A stretch of 64,000 bases of DNA from Corallococcus sp. AB011P (GTDB taxonomy: Bacteria; Myxococcota; Myxococcia; Myxococcales; Myxococcaceae): positions 68,811-132,810 of the forward strand of contig NZ_RAVX01000011.1 in NCBI RefSeq assembly GCF_003611605.1, in the 5' to 3' direction. The translations under genes and the position numbers were made by a program. Position 1 is the stretch's first letter. Each line of letters begins with the position of its first letter. Below the pieces are notes generated by a model. The model saw nothing but the letters and a program-made list of their open reading frames with translations. It did no database searches and was not told where the DNA came from. Below are positions 27,140-39,514 of this stretch, piece after piece.

Positions 27140-27478
27140 CTAGAACGGGACATCGTCCTCCGGTGGCGGACGCGCCTGCGCGGTCGTCCGGGGGGCAGCC
27201 TGGGGAGCGGGACGGGCCGCCACCGCCAGCGGCGCCACCACGTCCTGGCCGTCCTCGTCCACCAGCAGCTGCTCGATTCGCTGCTCGGCCTCCGTGAGCA
27301 GCTTCTCGCCCCGGCGGACGAGGCGGATGCCCTCCTCGAACGCCTTGAGCGACTCTTCCAGTGACAGGTCGCCGCCTTCCAGCCGCGCCACTGTCTCTTC
27401 CAGGCGCGACACCACGTCCCCGTACTGCTCCGGGGCAGGCTCCACCTTGGGGTTCTTGTCCGACTTCGCCACGGCCAT
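27140..27478 (-). CDS. xseB: Exodeoxyribonuclease VII small subunit
   Basis: It is XseB-like (LEESLKAFEEGIRLVR) and lies adjacent to xseA. Confidence 0.8.
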   Translation of the reverse strand: MAVAKSDKNPKVEPAPEQYGDVVSRLEETVARLEGGDLSLEESLKAFEEGIRLVRRGEKLLTEAEQRIEQLLVDEDGQDVVAPLAVAARPAPQAAPRTTAQARPPPEDDVPF

Positions 27479-27521
27479 CCACCTCTCCCCGAGCGGGGCG
27501 CGGAATGTAGAGGGTGGCCCG

Positions 27522-29234
27522 CTAGCAGTCCACCGGGCCTTTCAGGCTGGTAACGGTCGCTTCGATTTCTTCACACCCTCCCAGGGTTTTCGCCCCGTGG
27601 GCCGCCAGCTTGATGCCCAGCACGTCCCCCACCACCACGTCCGCCATGGAGCGCACCACGACGCCGTCCCGCTGGCGGAACGTCACCGCGTAGCCGCGAG
27701 ACATCACCTTCAGGGGGCTCAGGGCGTCCAGGCGGCCCCCCAACCGTCCGAAGTGCGTCTGCGCGGAGGCCAACATGCCCCGCTGCAGCTCCAGGAGCCG
27801 CGAGCGCGCCTGGGCCACCTTCGCCCGCTCGGCCGCCACCCGCGCCGTGGGGGATTGCCGCTCCAGCCCCAGCCGCGCGTCCGCCAGCGCGCCCCGCCGC
27901 CGGGTGACTCCCGCGCGCGCCGCCTCCGACAGGCGCATGGCCAGCTTGAGCAGGTGCGCCCGCTGCTCCGACAACCGCGTCTGGGGCCGCGCCCGCTGCA
28001 GCCGCTCCTGAAGGGCGCGCAGCGTCTCCCGGTGCTCGCGCGTGCGGGGGCGCAGCACGCGCATCATCGCCTCCACCTGTTCGGACAGGTGCAGGCGCTG
28101 GTGGTTCACCTCGCGGCGAGGGTCCGGCAGCCGCGCGCGAAGCTGGCCCTGGCGCCCGCGCAGCTCCAGCACCCGCCGCTCCATGGCCCGGCGCAGCCGG
28201 CCAGACTGCGTGGCCAGCGTCAGCTCCAGGTCGGCGAGAACCGGGGCCAGCCGCTCCGCCGCCGCGCTGGGCGTGGGCGCGCGCAGGTCCGCGACGAAGT
28301 CCGAGATGGTGAAGTCGATTTCGTGGCCGATGGCGGACACCACCGGCACCGGCGAGGCGAAGATGGCGCGCGCCACCCGCTCCTCGTTGAACGTCCAGAG
28401 GTCCTCCACGGAGCCTCCGCCGCGCGTCACGACGATGACGTCCACGTCGGTGCGCGAAAGCCGCTCGATGGCCCGCGCCACGTCCTCCGCGGCGCCCTCG
28501 CCCTGCACGCGCGCGTCCGCCAGCAGCACGCCCAGCCGGGGGTTGCGCGAGTGCAGCACGCGCAGGAAGTCCTGGAGCGCCGCGCCGGTGCGGCTGGTGA
28601 CGACGCCGATGCGCCGGGGCAGGAACGGCACGGGCCGGGGCGGCCGCACGCGCCGGTCGCCAATGAGCCCCTCCGCCGCCAGCCGCTGCTTGAGCTGCTC
28701 GAACGCGAGCGCCAGCGCACCCTCGCCCACCGGCTCCAGCCGGGACACGATGAGGCTGTAGCGGCCCTGCGGCTCGTACAGGTCCACGCTGCCCTCGGCC
28801 ACCACCTCCATGCCGTCGCGCAGCGCGAAGCGGATCCGCCCCGCCATGGACGCCCACACCTTCGCGTCGATGGAGGCGTCCGCGTCCTTGAGCGTGAAGT
28901 ACCAGTGGCCGCGCGCGTTGGCGCCGCGGAAGCTGGACACCTCGCCGCGCACCAGCACGCGCGGGAAGCGCGACTCCACCGTCTGCTTGATCTGCCGGGT
29001 GAGCTCGCCCACCGACAACACCGTGCGCTCCGGGCGCGGCGGCGGGGTGACGGCGGCCGGGGGCGGCGGAGCGACTTCGGCCGCCGGCGCGGTGGGCGGG
29101 GCCGCGGGCGGCTTGCCTCCACTGGCGGCCTTCGCCGGCGCGGGACGCAAGGGGGGGAGCAGCGACGTGCCGAACAGGTCGCCCTGCCCCGGCGTCTCGG
29201 CCGGGGGCGGCTCCAGCCCCTTGCGCTTCTTCAT
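27522..29234 (-). CDS. xseA: Exodeoxyribonuclease VII large subunit with Pro-rich N-terminal extension
   Basis: It has an OB-fold plus the XseA catalytic domain. The start is the ATG at 29232-29234 (MKKRKG), which overlaps the upstream stop as ATGA. The 725-aa track ORF over-extends. Confidence 0.85.
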   Translation of the reverse strand: MKKRKGLEPPPAETPGQGDLFGTSLLPPLRPAPAKAASGGKPPAAPPTAPAAEVAPPPPAAVTPPPRPERTVLSVGELTRQIKQTVESRFPRVLVRGEVSSFRGANARGHWYFTLKDADASIDAKVWASMAGRIRFALRDGMEVVAEGSVDLYEPQGRYSLIVSRLEPVGEGALALAFEQLKQRLAAEGLIGDRRVRPPRPVPFLPRRIGVVTSRTGAALQDFLRVLHSRNPRLGVLLADARVQGEGAAEDVARAIERLSRTDVDVIVVTRGGGSVEDLWTFNEERVARAIFASPVPVVSAIGHEIDFTISDFVADLRAPTPSAAAERLAPVLADLELTLATQSGRLRRAMERRVLELRGRQGQLRARLPDPRREVNHQRLHLSEQVEAMMRVLRPRTREHRETLRALQERLQRARPQTRLSEQRAHLLKLAMRLSEAARAGVTRRRGALADARLGLERQSPTARVAAERAKVAQARSRLLELQRGMLASAQTHFGRLGGRLDALSPLKVMSRGYAVTFRQRDGVVVRSMADVVVGDVLGIKLAAHGAKTLGGCEEIEATVTSLKGPVDC

Positions 29235-30979
29235 CGCGACAGCTTCTCGACCCAGCCCTGGGCCTTGCCGTGCAGCTCGTCGTCGGGCGGCGTCATCGCG
29301 ACGACGTCGCGGAACTTGGGCAGCGCGTCCTCCGGGCTGGAGTCCTTGATGGAGTAGGCCTGCATGTACAGGTCCTTCGCCTTGGCCTTGAGGTCGTTGA
29401 CGATGTTGGCGGCGCCCGTGTGGCTGGGGTCCGCCTGGAGCGCGCGGCGGGCGAACTCCATGGCGCGCGACCACTGGCCGGCGGCCTTCGCGCCCGCGGC
29501 GCTCTTGTAATAGATGTTCCCCGCGCGGGTGCCCGCGTTGCGCGCCATCTTGCTCGTGCGCCCGTCGGTGATGTCCTTGTCCAGCGCGAGCAGGCGGGTG
29601 AGGCCCTTGGCGTCCAGGTCCTCCAGCTTCTTGTAGAGGTTGCCGAACTCCGTCATCTGCCCCATCAGCTGCTTGCACTGGGGCGTCTTGGCCGAGCACG
29701 CGTTGAGGATGGCCACCGCGCCGGTGATGTCAGCGTCGCGGAAGCGGTCCACCGCGGGCTCCCACGGCTTGGGCACCGCGGCCACACGCACGGGGTCCGG
29801 ACGCGTCAGGTCCGCGATGACGCGCACGGCGTCGTCGTTGACGAGCTTGCCGTCGCGGTGCTCGGGGAAGGTCGCGAGCACGTCGTCGGTGATGGCCTTG
29901 GCCTTCTGCACGTTCTCCAGCTGGCGGGAGTCCAGCAGCCCCTTGGCCTCCTTCGTGCGCTTGTCGGCGGCGTCCGTCAGGTTCCTGCGCGCCGTCTTCA
30001 GCTGCTCGTAGAGCTGGGTGTCGCTGGTCACCTTCTCGATGGACGCCTTCGCGCTGGCCAGCTCGCCCTTGTCCAGCGCCGCCTGGGCCGTGCCCAGGTG
30101 GTTCTGGTTGGGGATCTCCCGCTCCGCGGCCTTCAGGTAGTCCGCCACGCCGGGGTAGTCCGGCGCCTGGGCGTGGAGCTCCTCCAGCTTCGCCTTGGCC
30201 TGCTGCCACTGGCCCTCGCGCACCAGGTTCTTGGCATCCTGGAAGAGGCCGCCCAGCTGCTCGCGGTAGTTGCGCTGCTCCGCCTCGATGCGGCCCTGCT
30301 CCTCCGCCTGTTGCCGCATGCGCGAGCGCACGACGCCCAGGCCCGCGAAGAGCACCACCAGCACGGCGACGCCCGCGAGCTTCATCCGCATGCGCTTGCG
30401 CTGCGCCTCCGGAGTGAGCTCCGCGGCGGCAGCGGCGCGCGACGTCTGCGGGCGCGCGCGGCCCTCCCGGGCGGGACGCGGGGGCACGGCCGTGGGACCG
30501 CGGCCCGCCGCCGTGGACGGACGGGGCCGGGGGCCGGTGGGGGCCTGCACCTTCGCGGTGCTGTTGGCGGTGTCCTCGTAGCGCAGCTCCGAGTCACCCA
30601 GCGTGATGACGTCGCCGTTGGCGAGGAGCGTCTCCTCGGAGATGGGCTCGCCGTTGACGATGGTTCCGTTGCCGGAGCCCATGTCACTGACCATCCAGCC
30701 GGCGGACTCCTTGCGCAGCGTCACGTGCTTGCGCGAGACGGACGTGTCCTGGATGCAGATGGGGTTGTCGGTGGCGCGGCCGACCGTGTACTCGAGCTCG
30801 GAGAGCGCGAACTCCTCGCCCTCCATGGGGCCGGCGACGACGACGAGCTTCGCGGGGCGGGCCGCGGCGGCACCGGCGGTCGACCGGCGGACCGGCGCGC
30901 GCGAACCAGTCCCCGAGGAGGGCGTACCGGATGTAGGCCGTCGGCGGGCGGGGGGAGGTGCGTTCGACATGGAGGTCAC
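29231..30979 (-). CDS. FHA-domain protein with one TM segment and C-terminal TPR-like helical domain
   Basis: The N-terminus has FHA motifs (GRATDNPICIQDTSVSRKHV...GSGNGTIVNG). A TM segment KLAGVAVLVVLFAGLGVV is followed by a roughly 350-aa helical domain. Confidence 0.7.
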   Translation of the reverse strand: MTSMSNAPPPARRRPTSGTPSSGTGSRAPVRRSTAGAAAARPAKLVVVAGPMEGEEFALSELEYTVGRATDNPICIQDTSVSRKHVTLRKESAGWMVSDMGSGNGTIVNGEPISEETLLANGDVITLGDSELRYEDTANSTAKVQAPTGPRPRPSTAAGRGPTAVPPRPAREGRARPQTSRAAAAAELTPEAQRKRMRMKLAGVAVLVVLFAGLGVVRSRMRQQAEEQGRIEAEQRNYREQLGGLFQDAKNLVREGQWQQAKAKLEELHAQAPDYPGVADYLKAAEREIPNQNHLGTAQAALDKGELASAKASIEKVTSDTQLYEQLKTARRNLTDAADKRTKEAKGLLDSRQLENVQKAKAITDDVLATFPEHRDGKLVNDDAVRVIADLTRPDPVRVAAVPKPWEPAVDRFRDADITGAVAILNACSAKTPQCKQLMGQMTEFGNLYKKLEDLDAKGLTRLLALDKDITDGRTSKMARNAGTRAGNIYYKSAAGAKAAGQWSRAMEFARRALQADPSHTGAANIVNDLKAKAKDLYMQAYSIKDSSPEDALPKFRDVVAMTPPDDELHGKAQGWVEKLSR

Positions 30980-31006
30980 CGCGTCCTGCTGAGGGGGGCA
31001 CGGGCC

Positions 31007-34000
31007 CTAAAGCTCGTGCTCATAGGCTTTTTCCTGCGCGAGATTGTGGCAGCGATGCTCGGCCGTAGGGAAGCGTCTCCGTACGTCTTCCAGGGTCGCG
31101 ACCGCATCCCGTCGGCTGCGGAACTGAACCGCCCGCTGGAACTGCATCATCAGCTGGCTGCAGCGGTGGTCCAGCTCCGTTGAAATCTGGGCGATCCGCT
31201 CCCGGACGTCCTCGTAAAGCTCCGGCTTTTCGTCCAGCGCTTCCAGGGTGATCCACGCGGCGCGGTACTCCCGCCACGCCTTGAACAGGTTCTCCGCGCC
31301 CACGTCCTTGAGCTCGTAGAAGCGGGCCCCCGCCTTCGCGGCCTCCCGGGCGGAGGAGACCAGCTGATCCGGCGGCAGCTCCGGCACCGGGATGACCTCC
31401 AGCCGCAGGTTCCAGATGCGCCACGGGTCGCGGCCGGGCGGGTTGAGGGCGTTGTCGAAGAGGAGCTGGTTGTTGGCGTTGCGCCGCAGGAGGCTGGGCG
31501 GGAGGACCTGCTCCAGCTCGCGCTCGGCCGTCTGCGCAGTGTCCGGGGGCACCCAGCCCAGGGATACGCCGTTGAGGGACAGGTTGACCTCGTCCCGGGC
31601 GATGCCGCTGGCCTGGTAGTGCAGCACCGCCACCGCGCGCGTGGGGGACACGAAGCGGAAGTCGAAGAGCTTGTCGTCGGCGTGGACCCAGCGCACACCG
31701 TCGCCCAGGCCGAAGGAGTCCGTCACCGGCTCCATGCCCAGCTTGAAGGGTTCGCGGCCCGGGAGCCGGATGGCCGTGGGGGCCGCGAGCGCTACGAGCA
31801 GCGTCACCACGCCCAGCATGGCCACGACCGCCAGCGACGCGAAGCCGATGCGCTTGGGCAGCGACTGGCGCTGCCAGAAGAGGAGGAACCGGCCCTGGAG
31901 CGACTTGCCCAGCTGACGCCGCTTGCGGGCCTTGTCGGCGGCGGACGAGGGCTCGACCTTCGCGACGACCGTCACCGGGCCGTTGGGCACGGGCTGGGCG
32001 ACGGAGTCCTCCAGGTCGGCGGGCACGGGCAGGGTGGCGTCACCCTCCACGTCCGGAGCGGGTACGCGGGCCAGTGGGGATTCGCCCGGCGGCGGGCCGG
32101 GGGGGATCCAGGCCGGAGGAGGCGCCACGGCCGGTGCGGCGGGCCCGGGCGCGACCTGGCCCGTGAAGGTCCCCGAGGCCCGAGTCTCCTCGGGGGCCGC
32201 GGAGAAATCATCGTCCTGGCCGACGAAGGTCGAGGGCTCGCTGGAGTCGATCGCGGCGGCGGGCGCGCTCACGACGCGGACCGGCGGGGCCACGAGCGGA
32301 CTGACCGGGGTGATGGGCCGGAGTTCGAGGAGCGTCCGCTCCTCGGGCTCCTCCATCGCCGGCGGAGGCAGCGCGGGCGAGGCCTCCTGCTGCGGCGGCG
32401 CCACTTCCAGGGGCGGCGCTTCCGGGGCCGCCGGAATCGCCATCAGCGTGCGCTCCTCGGGCTCGTCCAGCTCCGGGAAGGGCAGCACGGGAGGCGGCAC
32501 GGCGGCGGGATTGGGCGAGCCCACCGTGGAGATCGCCATCAGCGTGCGCTCCTCGGGCTCGTCCAGCTCCGGGAAGGGCAGCACGGGAGGCGGCGCGGCG
32601 GCGGGATTGGGCGAGCCCACCGTGGAGATCGCCATCAGCGTGCGCTCCTCGGGCTCGTCCAGCTCCGGGAAGGGCAGCACGGGAGGCGGCGCGGCGGCGG
32701 GCTCGGGTGCGGCCGCCGTGGGAATCGCCATCAGCGTGCGCTCCTCGGGTTCGTCCGGCACCATGGGGGCCAAGCCCACGGGAGGCGGTGCGACGGAAGG
32801 CCGTGCTGGAGGCGGCGGAGCCATCAGCCCCGGCGGCGACATCAACGGCAGGCCGGGCGCGGAAGCCGCGGCCCCCCGGGCCGCCGGAGCAGTGGACGCG
32901 CGCGCGGCGCCAAGCCCCAGCGAGGGACGGTTCAGCGCGGGCGCACCGACACCGGGCAGGTTCGCGACGGCGTGCCGCTTCGCGGGAGCCGCTGGTTCAA
33001 CGGGAACTGCCGCGACCTTCTCCGGAGCGGAGGCCGCCGTCGGGGCAGGAGTTCCGGCCGCGGGAAGCTCGATCGCCGTGGGGTGCGAGGGCGCCGGGGC
33101 AGCCTCCGGCGCGGACGACCGGCCCGGTCCCGAGGCACCGACCGCTGACAGTCCCGGCCCGGAGGCCCGGACGGAGGCGGAAGCGCCCGAAGCCTTGTTC
33201 GCCGCCGAGGCGCTCAGCACCGGGGGGCCAGCAGGAGCCTTGGCCGGAGCACCCGGCGCCGAAGGCCCCGACACGGGAGGTGCGGCGGGAACCTTGCCCG
33301 AAGCAGCGGACGCGGAGGCTCCCAGCACAGGAGGCCCGGCGGGAACCTTGCCCGAAGCAGCGGACGCGGAGGCCCCCAGCACAGGAGGCCCGGCGGGAAC
33401 CTTGCCCGAAGCAGCGGACGCGGAGGCCCCCAGCACTGGAGGTCCGGCGGGAACCTTGCCCGAAGCAGCGGACGCGGAGGCACCCAGCACTGGAGGCCCG
33501 GCGGGAGGCTTGAGCGAAGTCGCCGCACCCGGCGCGGAGGCCCCCAGCACAGGAGGCCCCGGAGGAGTCCGGACCGGTGCAGCCGCGCCTGGCACCGAGG
33601 CACTGACCGCAGGAAGATCCGGAGCGGAGGGCCGCTTCGGTGTAGCGGCCGCGGGCAGCGGCATCGCCGGGGTCGCCCCACCCTTCGCGGCGGGCACGGC
33701 CATTCCCGGGCGCGGTAGGGATGCAGGCCGGGCCATGGCCGGCATCGACTGCTGGTAGCTCGTGGGCGCCGCTTCGATCTCCGCGAGCGAGGCCTGCTCC
33801 ACGCCCTGCGGCGACACCCTCGCGTGGGGCGGCGCGAGCACCCGCCGGATGGGCCGGGTGACGTCGTTGTCATCCTCCGGCGGCACCCACACGAAGGTGA
33901 ACTCCACCGGCCCCACGGTGATGCGGTCGCCGTCGCGCAGCTGCTTCTCGCCGCCCAGCGGCTGGCCGTTCAGCTGCGTGCCGTTCGCGCTGCCAACGTC

Positions 34001-34105
34001 CTCCGCGAAGTAGCGCCCATCCCTGGCCGTGATGCGGGCATGACGCCGGGAGACACCGTGGTCATGCAGCACCAGGTCGTTCTCCGAGGTCCGGCCGATC
34101 TTCAC
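31007..34105 (-). CDS. Giant FHA-domain protein (1032 aa): FHA, long Pro/Ala-rich repeat linker, TM, C-terminal globular domain
   Basis: The N-terminus is an FHA domain (GRTSENDLVLHDHGVSRRHARI...GSANGTQLNG). It is followed by 18-aa repeats (x4) and 32-aa repeats (about x4), then a TM segment FASLAVVAMLGVVTLLVALAA and a roughly 270-aa C-terminal domain. Confidence 0.7.
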   Translation of the reverse strand: MKIGRTSENDLVLHDHGVSRRHARITARDGRYFAEDVGSANGTQLNGQPLGGEKQLRDGDRITVGPVEFTFVWVPPEDDNDVTRPIRRVLAPPHARVSPQGVEQASLAEIEAAPTSYQQSMPAMARPASLPRPGMAVPAAKGGATPAMPLPAAATPKRPSAPDLPAVSASVPGAAAPVRTPPGPPVLGASAPGAATSLKPPAGPPVLGASASAASGKVPAGPPVLGASASAASGKVPAGPPVLGASASAASGKVPAGPPVLGASASAASGKVPAAPPVSGPSAPGAPAKAPAGPPVLSASAANKASGASASVRASGPGLSAVGASGPGRSSAPEAAPAPSHPTAIELPAAGTPAPTAASAPEKVAAVPVEPAAPAKRHAVANLPGVGAPALNRPSLGLGAARASTAPAARGAAASAPGLPLMSPPGLMAPPPPARPSVAPPPVGLAPMVPDEPEERTLMAIPTAAAPEPAAAPPPVLPFPELDEPEERTLMAISTVGSPNPAAAPPPVLPFPELDEPEERTLMAISTVGSPNPAAVPPPVLPFPELDEPEERTLMAIPAAPEAPPLEVAPPQQEASPALPPPAMEEPEERTLLELRPITPVSPLVAPPVRVVSAPAAAIDSSEPSTFVGQDDDFSAAPEETRASGTFTGQVAPGPAAPAVAPPPAWIPPGPPPGESPLARVPAPDVEGDATLPVPADLEDSVAQPVPNGPVTVVAKVEPSSAADKARKRRQLGKSLQGRFLLFWQRQSLPKRIGFASLAVVAMLGVVTLLVALAAPTAIRLPGREPFKLGMEPVTDSFGLGDGVRWVHADDKLFDFRFVSPTRAVAVLHYQASGIARDEVNLSLNGVSLGWVPPDTAQTAERELEQVLPPSLLRRNANNQLLFDNALNPPGRDPWRIWNLRLEVIPVPELPPDQLVSSAREAAKAGARFYELKDVGAENLFKAWREYRAAWITLEALDEKPELYEDVRERIAQISTELDHRCSQLMMQFQRAVQFRSRRDAVATLEDVRRRFPTAEHRCHNLAQEKAYEHEL
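32330..32790. repeat. 96-bp tandem repeats (three near-perfect copies plus degenerate flanking copies) encoding PVLPFPELDEPEERTLMAI... units
   Basis: The unit atcgccatcagcgtgcgctcctcgggctcgtccagctccgggaagggcagcacgggaggcggc... starts at 32436, 32532, 32628 and 32724. Confidence 0.8.
33291..33510. repeat. Four tandem 54-bp repeats encoding (GKVPAGPPVLGASASAAS)x4
   Basis: The unit accttgcccgaagcagcggacgcggaggcccccagcacaggaggcccggcggga recurs at 33291, 33345, 33399 and 33453. Confidence 0.8.
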
Positions 34106-34178
34106 TTCGGCCTGCTCGAAGGCGAGCTCCCGTCCAACCTGGAGCCCCTGGGTGATGGTGAGCAGGATGGGCAGAGGA

Positions 34179-35069
34179 CTAGCCCCCGACGTTGCCGAAC
34201 ATGAACTGGAACACGATGGGCCCGAAGAGCACCATGAACACCGTCGGGAAGATGCAGGCGATGAGCGGGAAGAGCATCTTCACCGGTGCCTCGCCCGCCA
34301 GCTTCTCCGCGCGCTGCGTGCGGTCGATGCGCATCTGCGTGGACTGGATGCGCAGCACCTTGCCCAGGCTCGTGCCCATCTTGTCCGCCTGGATCAGCGC
34401 CGTGACGAACGTCGTCAGGGACGGCAGGTCCACACGCACGATCATGCTCTTGAGCCCCTCTTCACGCGTCTTGCCCATCTTGAGCTGCTTGAGCACCAGC
34501 TGCAGCTCTTCACGCAGCGGACCCTGGCGGCCCTTCTCCACCACCTTCGCCAGAGCACCCGTGAAGTCCATGCCCGCTTCCACCGACAGCGTCAGCAGGT
34601 CCAGGTTGTACGGAAGCGCGCGGCTGATGGCCAGGTGCCGGCGCTTCACCTGATCGTTCAACCAGATGAGCGGATAGAACAGGCCCAGCAGCATCACCAG
34701 CAGCGACCAGGCCAGGTTCGACCCGAGGCCGTTGACGACGAACAGGCCGACCAGCAGGCCGAAGAAGGCGCTGATCTCCTGCAGCGCCATGATGTCCTCG
34801 GGCTTGTACTGGGACGGCTCGCCCGCCTTGATCAGCTTGCGGCGCGTCTTGGACTCGTAGCCCGGCCACATGAAGCGCCGGTTCATCGCGCCCAGCTTGC
34901 GGATGGCGACGGAGCCCGCGCCCTTCATGCCGCCCGCGGACTCGTCGCGGACTTCCGTGAGGAAGCGCTCCAGGAGGTTGGAGTACAGGCCGATGCCCAG
35001 GAACGCCACCGCGCCCGCGGTCAGCAGTGCCGAGCCGCCCATCAGCAGAAATGTCAGGACTTCCTGCAC
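34179..35069 (-). CDS. tadC: Type II secretion system F family protein (TadC-like inner membrane platform)
   Basis: It has the GspF/T2SSF domain with three TM segments. Confidence 0.8.
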   Translation of the reverse strand: MQEVLTFLLMGGSALLTAGAVAFLGIGLYSNLLERFLTEVRDESAGGMKGAGSVAIRKLGAMNRRFMWPGYESKTRRKLIKAGEPSQYKPEDIMALQEISAFFGLLVGLFVVNGLGSNLAWSLLVMLLGLFYPLIWLNDQVKRRHLAISRALPYNLDLLTLSVEAGMDFTGALAKVVEKGRQGPLREELQLVLKQLKMGKTREEGLKSMIVRVDLPSLTTFVTALIQADKMGTSLGKVLRIQSTQMRIDRTQRAEKLAGEAPVKMLFPLIACIFPTVFMVLFGPIVFQFMFGNVGG

Positions 35070-35082
35070 GGTGCGCCTCGTT

Positions 35083-35928
35083 TCAGATGTCGATGTTGAC
35101 GATGCGCCGGATGATGAGGATGCCCATGATCTCCATGATGGCGATGATGGTCACCAGGATGTAGCCGAAGATGTGGTTCATCATCGGCTCCATCAGGTCC
35201 GGACGCATGTAGTTGAGCACCAGGCCGAGCACCGCCGGCATGGCCGCGACGATCCACCCTTGAAGCTTGCCCTGGGACGTCAGCGCGTCGATCTTGCCTT
35301 CCAGACGGAAGCGCTCGCGGATCACCGTGGAGATGGTCTCGAACATCTCCGCCATGTTGCCGCCCAGCTGGCGCGCGATGTTGGTGGACACCACCACCAG
35401 CTCCAGGTCGTCGCTGCCCACGCGGCGGCCCATGTTGATGAGCGCCTCCTCCAGCGGCACGCCCAGCTTCACTTCCTTCACGAAGAGGCCGAACTCCTGG
35501 GACAGGGGCGGCATCGCTTCGCGCGCCACGTGCTCGATGGCCTGGGGGAACGTGAGGCCCGCCTTGAACGCGTTGGCCATGGCCTGCAGCGCGTCCACCA
35601 ACTGCACGTTGAACTTCTTGATGCGGCGCTTGCGGTAGTGCTTCACGAGCAGCATCGGCAGGAAGAAGCCGAAGATGGTCGCGAGCACCGCCAGGATGGG
35701 GTTGAAGATGATGTAGCTGAGGATGCCCAGGAGGCACATGCAGGCGATGTTGAGGATCAACATCTGCCGCGGGTCGATGAAGAGGAACATGTCGCTCAAG
35801 TCGTTCATCGACTTGGCGACGTACCGCTCCTGGTACTGCTCATACGCCTTCGACAGGACGCTGAAGATCACCAGGCTGAAGAAGAACACCGAGCCGGTGA
35901 CGAGAAGGAGGACGATACCTGCGAGCAT
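35083..35928 (-). CDS. tadB: Type II secretion system F family protein (TadB-like inner membrane platform)
   Basis: It has a T2SSF domain and is the paralogous partner of the adjacent gene. Confidence 0.8.
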   Translation of the reverse strand: MLAGIVLLLVTGSVFFFSLVIFSVLSKAYEQYQERYVAKSMNDLSDMFLFIDPRQMLILNIACMCLLGILSYIIFNPILAVLATIFGFFLPMLLVKHYRKRRIKKFNVQLVDALQAMANAFKAGLTFPQAIEHVAREAMPPLSQEFGLFVKEVKLGVPLEEALINMGRRVGSDDLELVVVSTNIARQLGGNMAEMFETISTVIRERFRLEGKIDALTSQGKLQGWIVAAMPAVLGLVLNYMRPDLMEPMMNHIFGYILVTIIAIMEIMGILIIRRIVNIDI

Positions 35929-36006: not shown

Positions 36007-36825
36007 CTACGGAGAGCCGGCCGAGGCCTTCTCGCCGCCGCCGCTGCCCTTGATGATCTGGATGATCTCCCGGCGCTTCTGCTCCAGCACGCGGGTGCGC
36101 TCACCGGAGAGCAGCGTGCTGATGGTGGCGCGGCCGCGTTCCTCGATGAGGTCCACGTCGTCCTCGTTGCGCAGGGACAGGGTCAGCTGCCCCAGCTCCG
36201 CCGCCAGCACCAGGATCTCCGCCTCTTCCGGCAGCACCATCAGCGAGACGTTGGAGTACTCGCGCTGGTTCTCCGGGATGAGGTTGATGTTCGTGGTGCC
36301 GGTGATCTTGCCCGTGGCGACCACGATGATGTTCTGCAGCAGCGTCACCGCGACGCTCTCGTCCGTCTGCGGATCGCGGAACGTGCCGATGATGTCCACG
36401 TGGTCGTTCGGGCGGATCCACCCGCCCACGGACGTGGTCTGCTTCGCCTCGATGGTGATGGCGCGCGCCTTCTTCTGCACCTTCGTGGACAGGCGCTCGG
36501 CGGCCTTCGTCGTCTCGAACTGGCTCCAGAGGATGGGGTCGCCGGCCTGCAGCGCCACCAGCACCTTCTGGTTCACGATGTAGTTGGCGGAGTCCGGCTT
36601 CACCACCGACGAGGTGACGAACTGCTCCGGCACGGAGCGCTGGGAGATCATCTCGTACGTGATGACCGAACCCTCGGGCATGTCCTGGCCCGCCACCACC
36701 ACGGGCACCAGGTTCCACCCGCGGCGCACATCCGATTCCTTCTTCTTGATGGCCGAGTAGGCCACGATGCCCGCGAGCAAACCGAGCACCAGTGCGACGA
36801 CGAGTGGGGTCTTACCCTTCAACAT
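36007..36825 (-). CDS. cpaB: Flp pilus assembly protein CpaB/RcpC
   Basis: It has an N-terminal TM segment followed by SAF/RcpC-like domains. Confidence 0.8.
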   Translation of the reverse strand: MLKGKTPLVVALVLGLLAGIVAYSAIKKKESDVRRGWNLVPVVVAGQDMPEGSVITYEMISQRSVPEQFVTSSVVKPDSANYIVNQKVLVALQAGDPILWSQFETTKAAERLSTKVQKKARAITIEAKQTTSVGGWIRPNDHVDIIGTFRDPQTDESVAVTLLQNIIVVATGKITGTTNINLIPENQREYSNVSLMVLPEEAEILVLAAELGQLTLSLRNEDDVDLIEERGRATISTLLSGERTRVLEQKRREIIQIIKGSGGGEKASAGSP

Positions 36826-37058
36826 GGTTCAAAGTCCTCCAGAACGGTGGGGCGCCGTCGTGGCGGCAGGACTGCTTTGGACGAGGGGGCAATGCCAGGG
36901 CGCGAACGAGGCAAGATGTTAGCCATGCCCCAGAGCAGGTGTCAAAACCACCTCTCGCGACAAAGCGGAATCCCGGGACCTCCGGAGCTCACGGAGCCTG
37001 CCCGCCCAAGGGGGAGGACGGCTCGACGCAGCGAGTTGATCCGCGGCCTTTGCGTCCC

Positions 37059-37361
37059 TCAGGGGAACGGCAGGTTCAGCACGAAGTAAAACGAGTCGTA
37101 ATAGATCTGGTACGCCTCGAGGAACAGGTCGATGACGTTGGTCTGCCGGTCGTCCGTCCAGCGGATCTTCACCGTGGCGCCGATGACGAGCCCGACGATC
37201 AACACCCAGTTGATCATCGAGTACTCCACCATGGCCTGGCCACGGCGGGCCCGGCGCGGGGAGCGCGGCGGTGACTTCCGGGGGCTGTTCACGGGGGGAG
37301 CGTGCACGTCCGACGTCATGTCCCCATTATCCAGGACCCGGGCCCCGGACGCATCGGTCAT
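37059..37361 (-). CDS. Flp/Tad-type pilin (class III signal peptide)
   Basis: It has the Flp motif G/QAMVEYSMINWVLIVGLVIG (G-x4-EY followed by a hydrophobic stretch). It has an unusually long leader of 27-41 aa depending on the start. Its GC content is locally lower, about 55%. Confidence 0.6.
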   Translation of the reverse strand: MTDASGARVLDNGDMTSDVHAPPVNSPRKSPPRSPRRARRGQAMVEYSMINWVLIVGLVIGATVKIRWTDDRQTNVIDLFLEAYQIYYDSFYFVLNLPFP

Positions 37362-37379
37362 GTGGACTGCCGCCCTCCC

Positions 37380-38837
37380 CTACTGGGCGGGCTGGGAAGG
37401 GGCGGCCTTGGCCGGAGCAGACGCCGGAGCCGTGGGGGGCGCGGCCTGACGCAGGCGGCGCTGGGCCAGCTGCGCCGCGCTGGAGCCGGGGGCCTCCGTG
37501 AGGATCTGCCCGCAGACGGCGGCGGCCTCCTGGGTCCGGCCCTGGACGGACTCCGACTCGCAGAGCCGTGAGAGCAGGGCCACCCGCTCGCTGCCGCTGG
37601 CTCCGGCCGCGAGCGCGGCGCGCAGCAGCTGGGCCTCCCGGGCGCGGTCACCCTGGTTCGCGGCGGCCTGGGCCTGGGCGGACAGGTCGCGCGCCGTCAT
37701 CGCCTCCTTGGAGGCGGACTTCTCCATGGGCGCCGGCTTCGAGGCCTCCGCGCGGGCGGACTCCCGCTTGGGCATGGCGGTCGAAGGCGCCGGGGGCGTG
37801 GACGGAGGCGTCGCACCTCCGAGGGAGCCCACGGCGGAGGGGGCCATGGGCGCGGCCTGGACCACGGGCGCGGAGGCCACGGAAGGAGGCGGCGGAGGCG
37901 CACCCGCGGCGACGCTCTCGTCGTCGTCCGAGGCGAGCCCACGGCCATAGGCCGCCTCACCCAGCCGCAGGGAGGCGCCCGCCGAGCCCATGGCCTTGTC
38001 GCTGAGCTTGCCCGAGGAGCGCCGTCGCGCGGGTTCATCCTTCGCGACGTAGCCGTCGTTGGCCGCCTCTTCCTTCGGAGGCGCCTCCGGCATGACCGCC
38101 CCGGCCGTCGCCTGCTCGAGCGCGGCGAACTCGCCGTCCGCGTCCCGGACGGCCTTGGACATCTTCTTCTTGGGAGCCTCGGCGTCCGCGCGGCGCTCCA
38201 GCAGCGCGCCACCGCTGCCCGCGTTCATCCAGTCCGACGGACGGGCCGCGGCGGTGCCCTTGCGCTGCACCTTGGCCTCCACCTGGTTCTTCTGGAGCTC
38301 CATCTCGCTCGGCGCGGCCGCCAGTGCGTCCGAGGCACCTTCGGGCACGTCCACTTCGAGGGTCGCGCTCGAAGGCGCGGGGGCCATCGCGGCCGGGGCG
38401 CGCTTGTCCCGCGTCTGCGATTCCTGCTTCGCCGCCAACATCGGGCTGGGGGCCTCCCGCTGCGACAGGTTTGGCGCCAGATCGATGTTCTCGCTCACCG
38501 TCAACGTCAGGAGGCCGAAGGTACCCACCGTAGCCAGGCCCACCGCGGGCAGCAGGAAGCGGCGCCAGCGCGAGGGCTTCGGCTCGGGGCCGGCGGCGGC
38601 GCGGCGCGCGGACTGCTGCGCGTACGCGAGCAGCGACTCCAGGCCCGCGTCCGGCGCGGGCTCCGACGACAGCTGCGCCATGGTGGTGCGCACGCCGCGG
38701 ATGTCCGCCAGCGCCTTCGTGCAGCGCGCACAGCCCTGGACGTGCTGCTCCAGTGCGTGGGCCTCCGACGCGGGCAGCTCGCCGTAGGCGAAGTCGAGGA
38801 GCCGGTCCTCGTGCGCGTGGGCATTCTGGGCATTCAT
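37380..38837 (-). CDS. Zinc-finger anti-sigma factor with TM segment and large extracytoplasmic domain ending in a TPR-like segment
   Basis: The N-terminus has the ZAS motif HxxxCxxC (HVQGCARCTKAL). It has a single TM segment, and its start overlaps the ECF sigma stop as ATGA. Confidence 0.7.
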   Translation of the reverse strand: MNAQNAHAHEDRLLDFAYGELPASEAHALEQHVQGCARCTKALADIRGVRTTMAQLSSEPAPDAGLESLLAYAQQSARRAAAGPEPKPSRWRRFLLPAVGLATVGTFGLLTLTVSENIDLAPNLSQREAPSPMLAAKQESQTRDKRAPAAMAPAPSSATLEVDVPEGASDALAAAPSEMELQKNQVEAKVQRKGTAAARPSDWMNAGSGGALLERRADAEAPKKKMSKAVRDADGEFAALEQATAGAVMPEAPPKEEAANDGYVAKDEPARRRSSGKLSDKAMGSAGASLRLGEAAYGRGLASDDDESVAAGAPPPPPSVASAPVVQAAPMAPSAVGSLGGATPPSTPPAPSTAMPKRESARAEASKPAPMEKSASKEAMTARDLSAQAQAAANQGDRAREAQLLRAALAAGASGSERVALLSRLCESESVQGRTQEAAAVCGQILTEAPGSSAAQLAQRRLRQAAPPTAPASAPAKAAPSQPAQ

Positions 38838-39514
38838 CCCGCCACCGTCCTTCCATCCTCCGACAGGTCGCCGTCCACGCCCAGCTCACCCAGGCGGCGG
38901 CGCAGGCCCTCCAACGCGTAGCGCATGCGGCTCTTCACCGTGTTCTCGGACACGCCCGTCACCTCGGCGATCTCCTTGAACGGGATGCCGCTGTACTCGC
39001 GCAGCACGAACACCTCGCGCTGCTCCTCCGGCAGGGCCGACAGGGCCCGCTCCAACAGGGGCCGGAGGCGGGCGTTGTGCGCGCCCCGCTCCGGGCTGGC
39101 CCCGGCATCCGGCAGCCCCTCGCCCAGCGGACGTCCCTCGTCGCCGTCGGCACCCGCCGAGGGGGCTTCCAGGGACGTCGTCTGGCGGTAGCTCTCTTTG
39201 CGCGTGCTGTCCACGCAGAGGTTCCTCGCGATGGTGTACAGCCAGGTCGTGAACCGGGCCTTGGGCTCGTATTCCCGGGCGCTGCGGACCACCTTGAGCC
39301 AGGTCTCCTGCAGCACGTCCTCCGCCCGCGCCCTGTGGCCCACGAAGCGCAGGATGAAGTTGAACACCGGCGCGCGGTGCTTGCGCACCAACGCATCGAA
39401 CGCACGCGCGTTTCCCGCCTGGAAGGCGAGCATCAGCTGCTCGTCTGAGGTTTCGGGTGCCAAACTTCCCCCAGTGCCCATGAAGCCACGGGTGCCATCC
39501 CCTTCACCGCCCAA
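38834..39514 (-). CDS. ECF-family RNA polymerase sigma factor
   Basis: Sigma70 region 2 (FDALVRKHRAPVFNFILRFV...DVLQETWLKV) and region 4 are present. An alternative start is MGTGG at 39481. Confidence 0.8.
   Translation of the reverse strand: MGGEGDGTRGFMGTGGSLAPETSDEQLMLAFQAGNARAFDALVRKHRAPVFNFILRFVGHRARAEDVLQETWLKVVRSAREYEPKARFTTWLYTIARNLCVDSTRKESYRQTTSLEAPSAGADGDEGRPLGEGLPDAGASPERGAHNARLRPLLERALSALPEEQREVFVLREYSGIPFKEIAEVTGVSENTVKSRMRYALEGLRRRLGELGVDGDLSEDGRTVAG

Follow-up and report, generated by a model that had tools for sequence, protein, structure and literature searches.

Two FHA proteins in the Kil locus of Corallococcus

The stretch of DNA analyzed here (the window; 64,000 nucleotides of Corallococcus sp. 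AB011P, contig NZ_RAVX01000011.1, positions 68,811 to 132,810) carries two adjacent genes on the minus strand, a long one named p2 and a short one named p1, which encode proteins made of an N-terminal FHA domain, a linker, a single transmembrane helix and a C-terminal domain predicted to lie in the periplasm. The pair constitutes the distal genes of a kilB-kilG-kilH operon, part of the Tad-like Kil contact-killing machine, and by sequence comparison p2 is the ortholog of MXAN_4649 and p1 that of MXAN_4648 of Myxococcus xanthus. An earlier note on this DNA had recognized two consecutive FHA-linker-transmembrane-extracytoplasmic proteins embedded in a Tad-like operon, and both points were borne out, as Pfam assigns an FHA domain at 68 to 71 bits and hydropathy a single hydrophobic segment to each protein, and cpaB-, tadB- and tadC-like genes are their neighbors.

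Both genes have hundreds of homologs with E values from 0 to 1e-60 and are thus real genes rather than chance open reading frames. The guanine-plus-cytosine (GC) content at third codon positions is of the coding type in both frames (0.96 and 0.85), in a window of ~71% GC whose proteins are 91 to 100% identical to those of Corallococcus coralloides KYC2213; p1 shares 95% identity with its C. coralloides counterpart, and its homologs occur across Myxococcaceae and Archangiaceae. The features of the pair are the following.

31007..34174, minus strand: p2, a long protein of FHA domain, linker, transmembrane helix and beta-sandwich/helical domain, about 1055 residues from CTG 34174
34172..34174, minus strand: probable noncanonical CTG start of p2, 4 nucleotides (nt) past the kilH-like stop, with a run of G just upstream
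33890..34174, minus strand: p2 FHA domain, residues 1-95, with the GR / SRRH / NGT signature; best PDB match OdhI/GarA, E 3e-12
31862..33889, minus strand: cytoplasmic P/A-rich disordered linker of p2, about 675 residues (P 21%, A 21%)
31775..31861, minus strand: single transmembrane helix of p2, about residues 772-800, Kyte-Doolittle maximum 2.63; AlphaFold helix at fragment residues 25-50
31388..31714, minus strand: predicted periplasmic beta-sandwich of p2, resembling a carbohydrate-binding module (CBM), residues 821-929; AlphaFold strands at fragment residues 74-182
31019..31372, minus strand: predicted periplasmic five-helix TPR-like bundle of p2, residues 935-1052, with a conserved Cys pair
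29231..30979, minus strand: p1, a protein of FHA domain, transmembrane helix and TPR domain, 582 residues; Pfam FHA and TPR_14 matches
30581..30841, minus strand: p1 FHA domain, residues 47-133, with the GR / SRKH / NGT signature; best PDB match GarA, E 2e-15
30323..30385, minus strand: single transmembrane helix of p1, about residues 199-219, Kyte-Doolittle maximum 2.39 in a 19-residue window
29234..30322, minus strand: predicted periplasmic domain of p1, a long helix followed by an all-alpha TPR-like solenoid; AlphaFold predicted local distance difference test (pLDDT) 91.3

Both FHA domains score above the Pfam PF00498 gathering cutoff of 20.7 bits (68.0 for p1 and 71.2 for p2) and retain the residues that contact phosphothreonine (VGR...VSRKH...GNGT in p1, IGR...VSRRH...ANGT in p2). 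The GR, SRxH and NGT residues are at least 90% conserved among 113 p1 homologs, and likewise in the p2 family. PDB sequence matches designate GarA, OdhI, EmbR and Rv1747 as the best solved relatives of both domains, all four being phosphothreonine readers. Judged on their sequences, the two domains would be canonical phosphothreonine readers closest to GarA/OdhI, which supports the phosphothreonine-dependent scaffold that had been suggested as a possibility for this locus. In p1, the Pfam FHA match (68 bits) covers residues 64-128 and a Yop-YscD_cpl match (71 bits) covers residues 47-133. The linker of p1, rich in A/R/P/T, measures about 65 residues. Right after the FHA domain stands a near-invariant D..N.T motif (YEDTANST here; 30560-30580, minus strand; residues about 134-140). 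By analogy with GarA/OdhI, this motif is a possible candidate for a phospho-acceptor or auto-inhibitory site.

The two proteins can be aligned with each other in the FHA domain only (34% identity, E 4e-16), and their periplasmic profiles show no detectable homology (hhalign probability 7.9%). Their description as paralogous copies thus stands for the FHA domains and fails for the periplasmic ones, and a recent duplication of the pair was rejected on these same two results.

Regarding membrane topology, p2 has one hydrophobic segment (residues 772-805), and in p1 the segment 197-221 is the sole one above 1.6 on the Kyte-Doolittle scale; AlphaFold extends the p1 transmembrane helix as one continuous long helix (fragment residues 2-65). 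The 30 residues ahead of the p2 transmembrane helix hold about 10 K/R, compared with 3 behind it. Each C-terminal domain holds a conserved Cys pair: CxxxxxxC in p1 (C239 and C246 of the modeled fragment) is invariant across the 113 homologs, and C258/C295 in p2 is at least 90% conserved in homologs and is also kept in distant relatives. These pairs fit periplasmic disulfides. From hydropathy, charge bias and conserved Cys pairs, we infer that both proteins keep their FHA domain in the cytoplasm, cross the inner membrane once and expose their C-terminal domain to the periplasm.

Just before the p2 helix, a basic juxtamembrane segment of the form AAxRARxRR...W (about 31862-31933, minus strand; residues 748-771) is conserved family-wide, distant members included, with A2, R3, R6 and W20 of the modeled fragment at least 90% conserved. 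The segment could be an interaction site or a site binding anionic lipids.

To assign folds to the C-terminal parts, each protein was modeled with AlphaFold from the transmembrane helix to the C terminus, using alignments of 104 (p2) and 113 (p1) homologs. The region of p2 that follows the hydrophobic segment (about 255 residues) was predicted with a pLDDT of 88.6 for a model comprising the transmembrane helix, an eight-strand beta-sandwich and a five-helix bundle. Foldseek matched the sandwich in PDB to Cry toxins, BcsB (4hg6_B), CBM6/35/36 and a collagen-binding domain, with E values of 1e-4 to 1e-2. The C-terminal region of p1 (about 360 residues), which has weak Pfam TPR matches, gave a model with a pLDDT of 91.3 and a predicted template modeling score (pTM) of 0.46, in which helical hairpins form a TPR-type solenoid; its Foldseek matches are generic TPR proteins, including P58IPK, OGT, subunits of the APC and BamD. 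Invariant columns number 18 in the periplasmic domain of p2 (104 sequences) and 38 in that of p1 (113 sequences). Altogether, the models predict that the periplasmic parts of both proteins are binding modules and not ring-building domains.

Start codon and linker of the long protein

The first canonical start codon of p2, GTG 34105, lies inside the FHA domain and would drop its strands b1 and b2. The conserved frame opens about 23 codons earlier, as do the alignments with PDB and Pfam entries, and the in-frame sequence upstream of this GTG, PILLTITQGLQVGRELAFEQAEV, is conserved across genera and is covered both by the Pfam FHA match and by the alignment with OdhI. The p2 gene therefore most likely starts at CTG 34174, where the conserved frame begins, rather than at 34105, the end coordinate assumed earlier for this DNA. 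At the homologous position, the start codon is CTG in Corallococcus, Pyxidicoccus, Archangium, Vitiosangium, Hyalangium and several Myxococcus, GTG in M. xanthus and its close relatives, and ATG in a paralog clade of 40% identity. In most ortholog genera (loci L001-L054 of those fetched for comparison), the CTG stands a few nucleotides (about 3-7) from the kilH stop codon, with a run of G just upstream. These sequence comparisons suggest that the CTG of p2 is a weak start, conserved and coupled to the translation of kilH. The frame of the kilH stop relative to p2 is different in Corallococcus and the same in some other genera, and since this relation varies between genera, a kilH-p2 fusion by frameshift or readthrough is not the common explanation. 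For p1, the translation start is probably ATG 30970, which is favored because the family consensus begins with MSN.

The linker of p2 contains two tandem arrays detected by Tandem Repeats Finder, both in frame. The first (33203-33559) consists of 6.5 copies of a 54-bp unit encoding the 18 residues GKVPAGPPVLGASASAAS; the second (32436-32756; 95% matched) consists of 3.3 copies of a 96-bp unit encoding 32 residues that contain EPEERTLMAI. Orthologs of p2 measure 940 to 1124 residues in Corallococcus, varying between genomes, and about 484 residues in M. xanthus. The EPEERTL repeat was considered as a conserved phospho-site and rejected, the pattern being present in 1 of 103 homologs; it looks from this distribution like an expansion specific to Corallococcus.

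A word-indexed protein search with the C-terminal domain of p2 missed close Corallococcus orthologs, which a genome scan recovered at 91 to 94% identity. It is possible that the CTG start together with the low-complexity linker leads to truncated or missing "hypothetical" gene calls devoid of FHA annotation.

Gene order, orthology and family

Along minus-strand transcription, the genes follow each other in the order extracytoplasmic function (ECF) sigma factor, anti-sigma factor, Flp pilin, cpaB, tadB, tadC, p2, p1, xseA and xseB. The earlier note had placed the FHA pair upstream of tadC/tadB/cpaB; transcription runs from high to low coordinates, and the pair is thus downstream (3') of these genes and upstream of xseA. 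The neighboring Kil genes are the following.

34179..35069, minus strand: TadC/KilH-like inner-membrane platform gene, directly upstream of p2; Pfam T2SSF, 83% identity to the M. xanthus locus
35083..35928, minus strand: TadB/KilG-like inner-membrane platform gene; Pfam T2SSF, 96% identity to the M. xanthus locus
36007..36825, minus strand: CpaB/RcpC (KilB-like) gene; Pfam RcpC and SAF, TIGR03177 at 190 bits
37059..37361, minus strand: Flp-type pilin, KilK-like; from its translation, with the G/QAMVEY cleavage motif, 71% identity to the M. xanthus locus

The kilH stop (TAG 34179-34181) and the p2 start are separated by a gap of 4 nt, p2 and p1 by about 27 nt, and the p1 stop and the start of xseA (in 27140-29231, minus strand) by about 8 nt. 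A promoter scan gave a sigma-70-like match at 36916-36945, just upstream of cpaB. In every ortholog genome mapped gene by gene, xseA, xseB, a response regulator gene, ispA and dxs run 3' of the FHA pair, and there may be read-through from the Kil operon into these housekeeping genes.

At the other end of the locus, the KilK-like Flp pilin gene adjoins kilB, and a pair of genes for an ECF sigma factor and a zf-HC2 anti-sigma factor lies directly upstream of it (37059-39514, minus strand). KilK has been described as an adapter pilin (PMC12075869). The genes MXAN_4653/4654 and the Tip4 pilins KilL4, KilN4 and KilM4, which stand between KilB and a zinc-finger protein in cluster II of M. xanthus, are not at the window locus; hence, Kil cluster II is more compact in this Corallococcus.

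The orthology with the M. xanthus genes is grounded on both identity and gene order. By tblastn against the locus of M. xanthus AM003, p1 shares 61% identity, the C-terminal domain of p2 57% and its FHA domain 79%. The order kilB-kilG-kilH-p2-p1-xseA is kept in 12 of 12 ortholog genomes mapped gene by gene, which include M. xanthus, other Myxococcus, Citreicoccus, Archangium, Vitiosangium and Hyalangium. Among 80 fetched loci, orthologs were defined by at least 46% identity to the C-terminal domain of p2, and 45 had enough flanking sequence; kilH is immediately upstream of the p2 ortholog in 44 of these 45 loci, and an FHA-TPR gene (the p1 ortholog), along with xseA, comes directly after it in 44 of the 45.

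Contrary to the earlier view that such proteins are absent from described Tad pili, both genes belong to a published Kil cluster. In M. xanthus, Kil cluster II comprises MXAN_4648, MXAN_4649, MXAN_4650 (KilH), MXAN_4651 (KilG) and MXAN_4652 (KilB), then KilK and further genes (Seef et al. 2021, PMC8460266, Supplementary file 1). There, MXAN_4648 is annotated with FHA and TPR domains and an HHpred match to "protein kinase G", and MXAN_4649 with an FHA domain and an HHpred match to "T3SS PrgH-EprH" at 4.1e-10 (PMC8460266). The window pair shares with MXAN_4648 and MXAN_4649 the gene order, an identity of 57 to 61% and the annotation as FHA (4649) and FHA plus TPR (4648) proteins. In contrast, the Corallococcus p2 reaches about 1055 residues versus about 484 through the tandem-repeat expansion of its linker, and it appears to have a CTG instead of a GTG start. 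In the Kil literature searched, MXAN_4648/4649 are named only within the range of genes that makes up the cluster; the kil FHA proteins are described there as being of unknown function and are suspected to act in contact signaling. Published deletions are those of kilA, B, C, D, F, G, H, K, L and M only.

The p2 family extends well outside these orthologs. An exhaustive HMMER search with a profile of the p2 periplasmic domain yielded 760 clusters (50% identity) at E <= 1e-3, including 152 at E <= 1e-30; a word-index profile search gave no additional distant relatives, whereas the HMMER search found them. Among 125 distant representatives, a regular-expression and hydropathy count found the FHA signature within the first 200 residues in 76 and a transmembrane segment in 119; their median linker measures about 175 residues, and that of Corallococcus stands at the extreme. 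The p2 relatives thus form a coherent family of FHA-transmembrane-sandwich/bundle proteins. Many of the same genomes also carry a sister clade with about 40% identity (L055, L060, L062, L070, L072, L074, L075 and L077-L080), usually with a WYL-domain regulator gene before it and a PLD-like (cardiolipin-synthase-like) gene and an aconitase gene directly after. Since this clade sits away from Tad genes, the fold family is not intrinsically a Tad part. In a metagenome-assembled genome of the Myxococcota (L057, 9197-14534), a TadE-like pilin gene comes directly after a family member of 43% identity, with two genes devoid of Pfam matches behind it; this ties the family to Tad components a second time, independently.

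Proposed role of the pair and competing explanations

We propose, with a probability of about 0.55, that p1 and p2 are trans-membrane adaptors of the Kil contact-killing machine, linking Ser/Thr-phosphorylation signaling to the inner-membrane platform and the periplasm. As bitopic inner-membrane proteins, they would each hold a cytoplasmic FHA domain on a flexible tether. These FHA domains would dock partners that are Thr-phosphorylated or bear TPRs, e.g., KilD (FHA plus TPR), KilF (an ATPase fused to an FHA domain) or the substrate of a kinase. In the periplasm, the beta-sandwich and the TPR modules would bind parts of the envelope, for instance KilB, KilC (a short secretin), a glycan or peptidoglycan. 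A phosphorylation signal could hence be coupled to the place and time of KilG/KilH platform assembly. The partners and the scaffold role follow here by inference. KilD and KilF, which are among the FHA-containing Kil proteins, are described as cytoplasmic, KilF being a cytoplasmic ATPase (PMC8460266). Among the listed FHA proteins of the Kil clusters, p1 and p2 are, by hydropathy, the membrane-spanning ones.

Among well-studied proteins of the same organisms, the nearest analogue is GltG, a trans-envelope connector of the M. xanthus gliding machine (Agl-Glt) that is organized as an FHA-linker-transmembrane-periplasmic protein; docking of its FHA domain on GltI, a giant TPR protein, has been predicted (PMC11761067). 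GltG shares with p1 and p2 the bitopic layout, the N-terminal FHA domain, long disordered segments, one transmembrane helix and a periplasmic C-terminal domain; unlike them, it bears two FHA domains and, in the periplasm, a TonB-C-like domain, and it works with a MotA/TolQ-type motor. Orthology with GltG was rejected, NF033760 scoring 47.7 and 51.2 bits versus a cutoff of 650 and the C-terminal folds differing from the TonB-C-like one.

A second comparison concerns the periplasmic TPR factors TadD, PilF and BamD, which are outer-membrane lipoproteins. The TPR solenoid of p1 resembles them, with BamD among its Foldseek matches, and this likeness is at the fold level only; unlike these factors, p1 has an FHA domain in the cytoplasm and a transmembrane helix that anchors it in the inner membrane. 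According to Seef et al. (PMC8460266), the Kil system has no TadD, the TPR pilotin, which leaves a TPR role free in the Kil periplasm.

Several points weigh against the proposed adaptor role. The pair is tightly trailed by the housekeeping genes xseA and xseB, and co-transcription on its own is weak functional evidence. The scan of window genes for neighboring content (18.8-60 kb) turned up no gene for a Ser/Thr kinase or phosphatase, and the literature searched yielded no functional test of MXAN_4648 or MXAN_4649. The topology is based on a simple hydropathy scan. Finally, the sister clade of p2 never adjoins Tad genes (0 of 22 and 0 of 21).

An outside-in sensor of prey contact, which we consider unlikely, would assign the initiating event to the periplasm. 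The CBM-like and TPR modules would detect an envelope ligand derived from prey or from damage, and the resulting clustering would concentrate FHA domains and tethers, thus nucleating the assembly of KilD/KilF. KilD clusters at sites of prey contact even when the Tad apparatus is not functional, implying that a sensor acts upstream (PMC8460266, discussion), and p1 and p2 are predicted to span the membrane whereas KilD and KilF are cytoplasmic. The p2 sandwich resembles glycan-binding modules (the carbohydrate-binding domain of BcsB, CBM6/35/36), and the p2 linker is expanded and polymorphic in length. Nevertheless, this fold similarity is generic (TM-scores of 0.2-0.5 at 10-20% identity) with no ligand site identified, the outer membrane of the predator separates its periplasm from the prey, and the paralog clade sits outside Tad loci.

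An inner-membrane ring similar to SctD/YscD/PrgH, in which the periplasmic domains would oligomerize into an extra ring around the Tad platform, had been put forward in the earlier note, and we regard it as improbable. Its appeal comes from the SctD-like succession of an FHA-fold domain, a transmembrane helix and a periplasmic domain, from PF16697 scores of 71 and 65 bits and from the published HHpred match of MXAN_4649 to PrgH at 4.1e-10 (PMC8460266). The layout that p1 and p2 share with SctD/YscD/PrgH/EscD (N-terminal cytoplasmic FHA-fold domain, single transmembrane helix, periplasmic C terminus) is, however, common to many proteins other than SctD, and on identical residues the PF16697 "YscD cytoplasmic" model and the generic FHA model reach about equal scores. 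The SctD equivalog TIGR02500 reaches 28.0 and 18.8 bits, far below its cutoff of 86, over model positions 3-160 of 413, i.e., the N-terminal part only.

The structural comparison that had been suggested, a Foldseek search with the predicted C-terminal domains, showed no ring-building fold among the matches listed: unlike the SctD family, the periplasmic models, a beta-sandwich with a TPR-like bundle for p2 and a TPR solenoid for p1, are devoid of ring-building (alpha-beta-beta-alpha-beta) motifs, and no SctD, PrgH, YscD or EscD chain is among the Foldseek matches listed for either. The FHA domains of p1 and p2 keep the phosphothreonine-binding residues, which are degenerate in the FHA-like domain of YscD, and no type III secretion system (T3SS) protein is among their solved-structure matches at E <= 0.001. 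The context is not that of a T3SS either, as no T3SS genes (SctJ, SctC, SctV and others) were found in the scanned parts of the window. A role as stand-in SctD for the needleless T3SS* was also rejected, the myxobacterial T3SS* cluster having its own SctD elsewhere in the genome. The YscD/PrgH link, tempting but very probably wrong, stems from an FHA-domain match and is propagated in annotations as "YscD-like" or "PrgH".

Equally hard to credit is a switch of the TagH/Fha1 type of type VI secretion systems (T6SS), where a PpkA-like kinase would phosphorylate a Kil component and FHA binding would license firing, with no structural role in the periplasm. An analogy to the threonine-phosphorylation pathway of the Pseudomonas aeruginosa T6SS was drawn by Seef et al. 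(PMC8460266), and in both cases an FHA protein sits on a contact-triggered envelope machine. The NCBIfam model VI_FHA (TagH, TIGR03354) matches p2 at 64.2 bits, a score below its cutoff of 120.25, and p1 has no match. TagH/Fha1 proteins are devoid of periplasmic domains of the p1/p2 type, and the invariant columns of these domains argue for an extra-cytoplasmic function too. The absence of kinase genes noted above also speaks against such a switch, and no T6SS or PpkA/PppA genes were found in the same parts of the window.

That p1 and p2 are general envelope or lipid-homeostasis proteins and mere neighbors of the Kil genes is very improbable: the paralog clade conserved beside a PLD-like gene and never beside Tad genes, the proximity of xseA (within about 8 nt of the pair, then xseB, ispA and dxs) and a basic juxtamembrane segment that could bind anionic lipid would fit such a role, whereas the near-perfect kilH-p2-p1 linkage (44 of 45 loci, two myxobacterial families), the apparent coupling of the p2 start to the kilH stop codon and the independent lineage that ties a family member to TadE-like pilin genes speak against it.

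The genes themselves, their FHA content and the PrgH resemblance of MXAN_4649 were already known. What our study adds at the level of structural models is the predicted periplasmic folds of both proteins, devoid of ring-building motifs; at the level of sequence, it points to a conserved CTG start coupled to kilH, a doubling of the linker driven by repeats in Corallococcus and a clade unlinked to Tad genes.

To explain how Myxococcus and its relatives place Kil assembly exactly at the site of prey contact, the literature points to the many kil FHA proteins without giving them roles. The membrane-spanning topology and the binding-type periplasmic folds predicted for p1 and p2 narrow their possible roles, and the adaptor role that we propose is directly testable genetically. 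A bolder version, which we hold as doubtful, is that the pair represents the missing trans-membrane trigger of Kil, in which an envelope or glycan signal induced by contact and sensed by the CBM-like and TPR modules would lead to clustering, concentrate the FHA domains on their long tethers, recruit phosphorylated KilD or KilF and thus fix the site of Tad assembly. If true, such a trans-membrane trigger would constitute a sensing principle undescribed for any type IV filament system.

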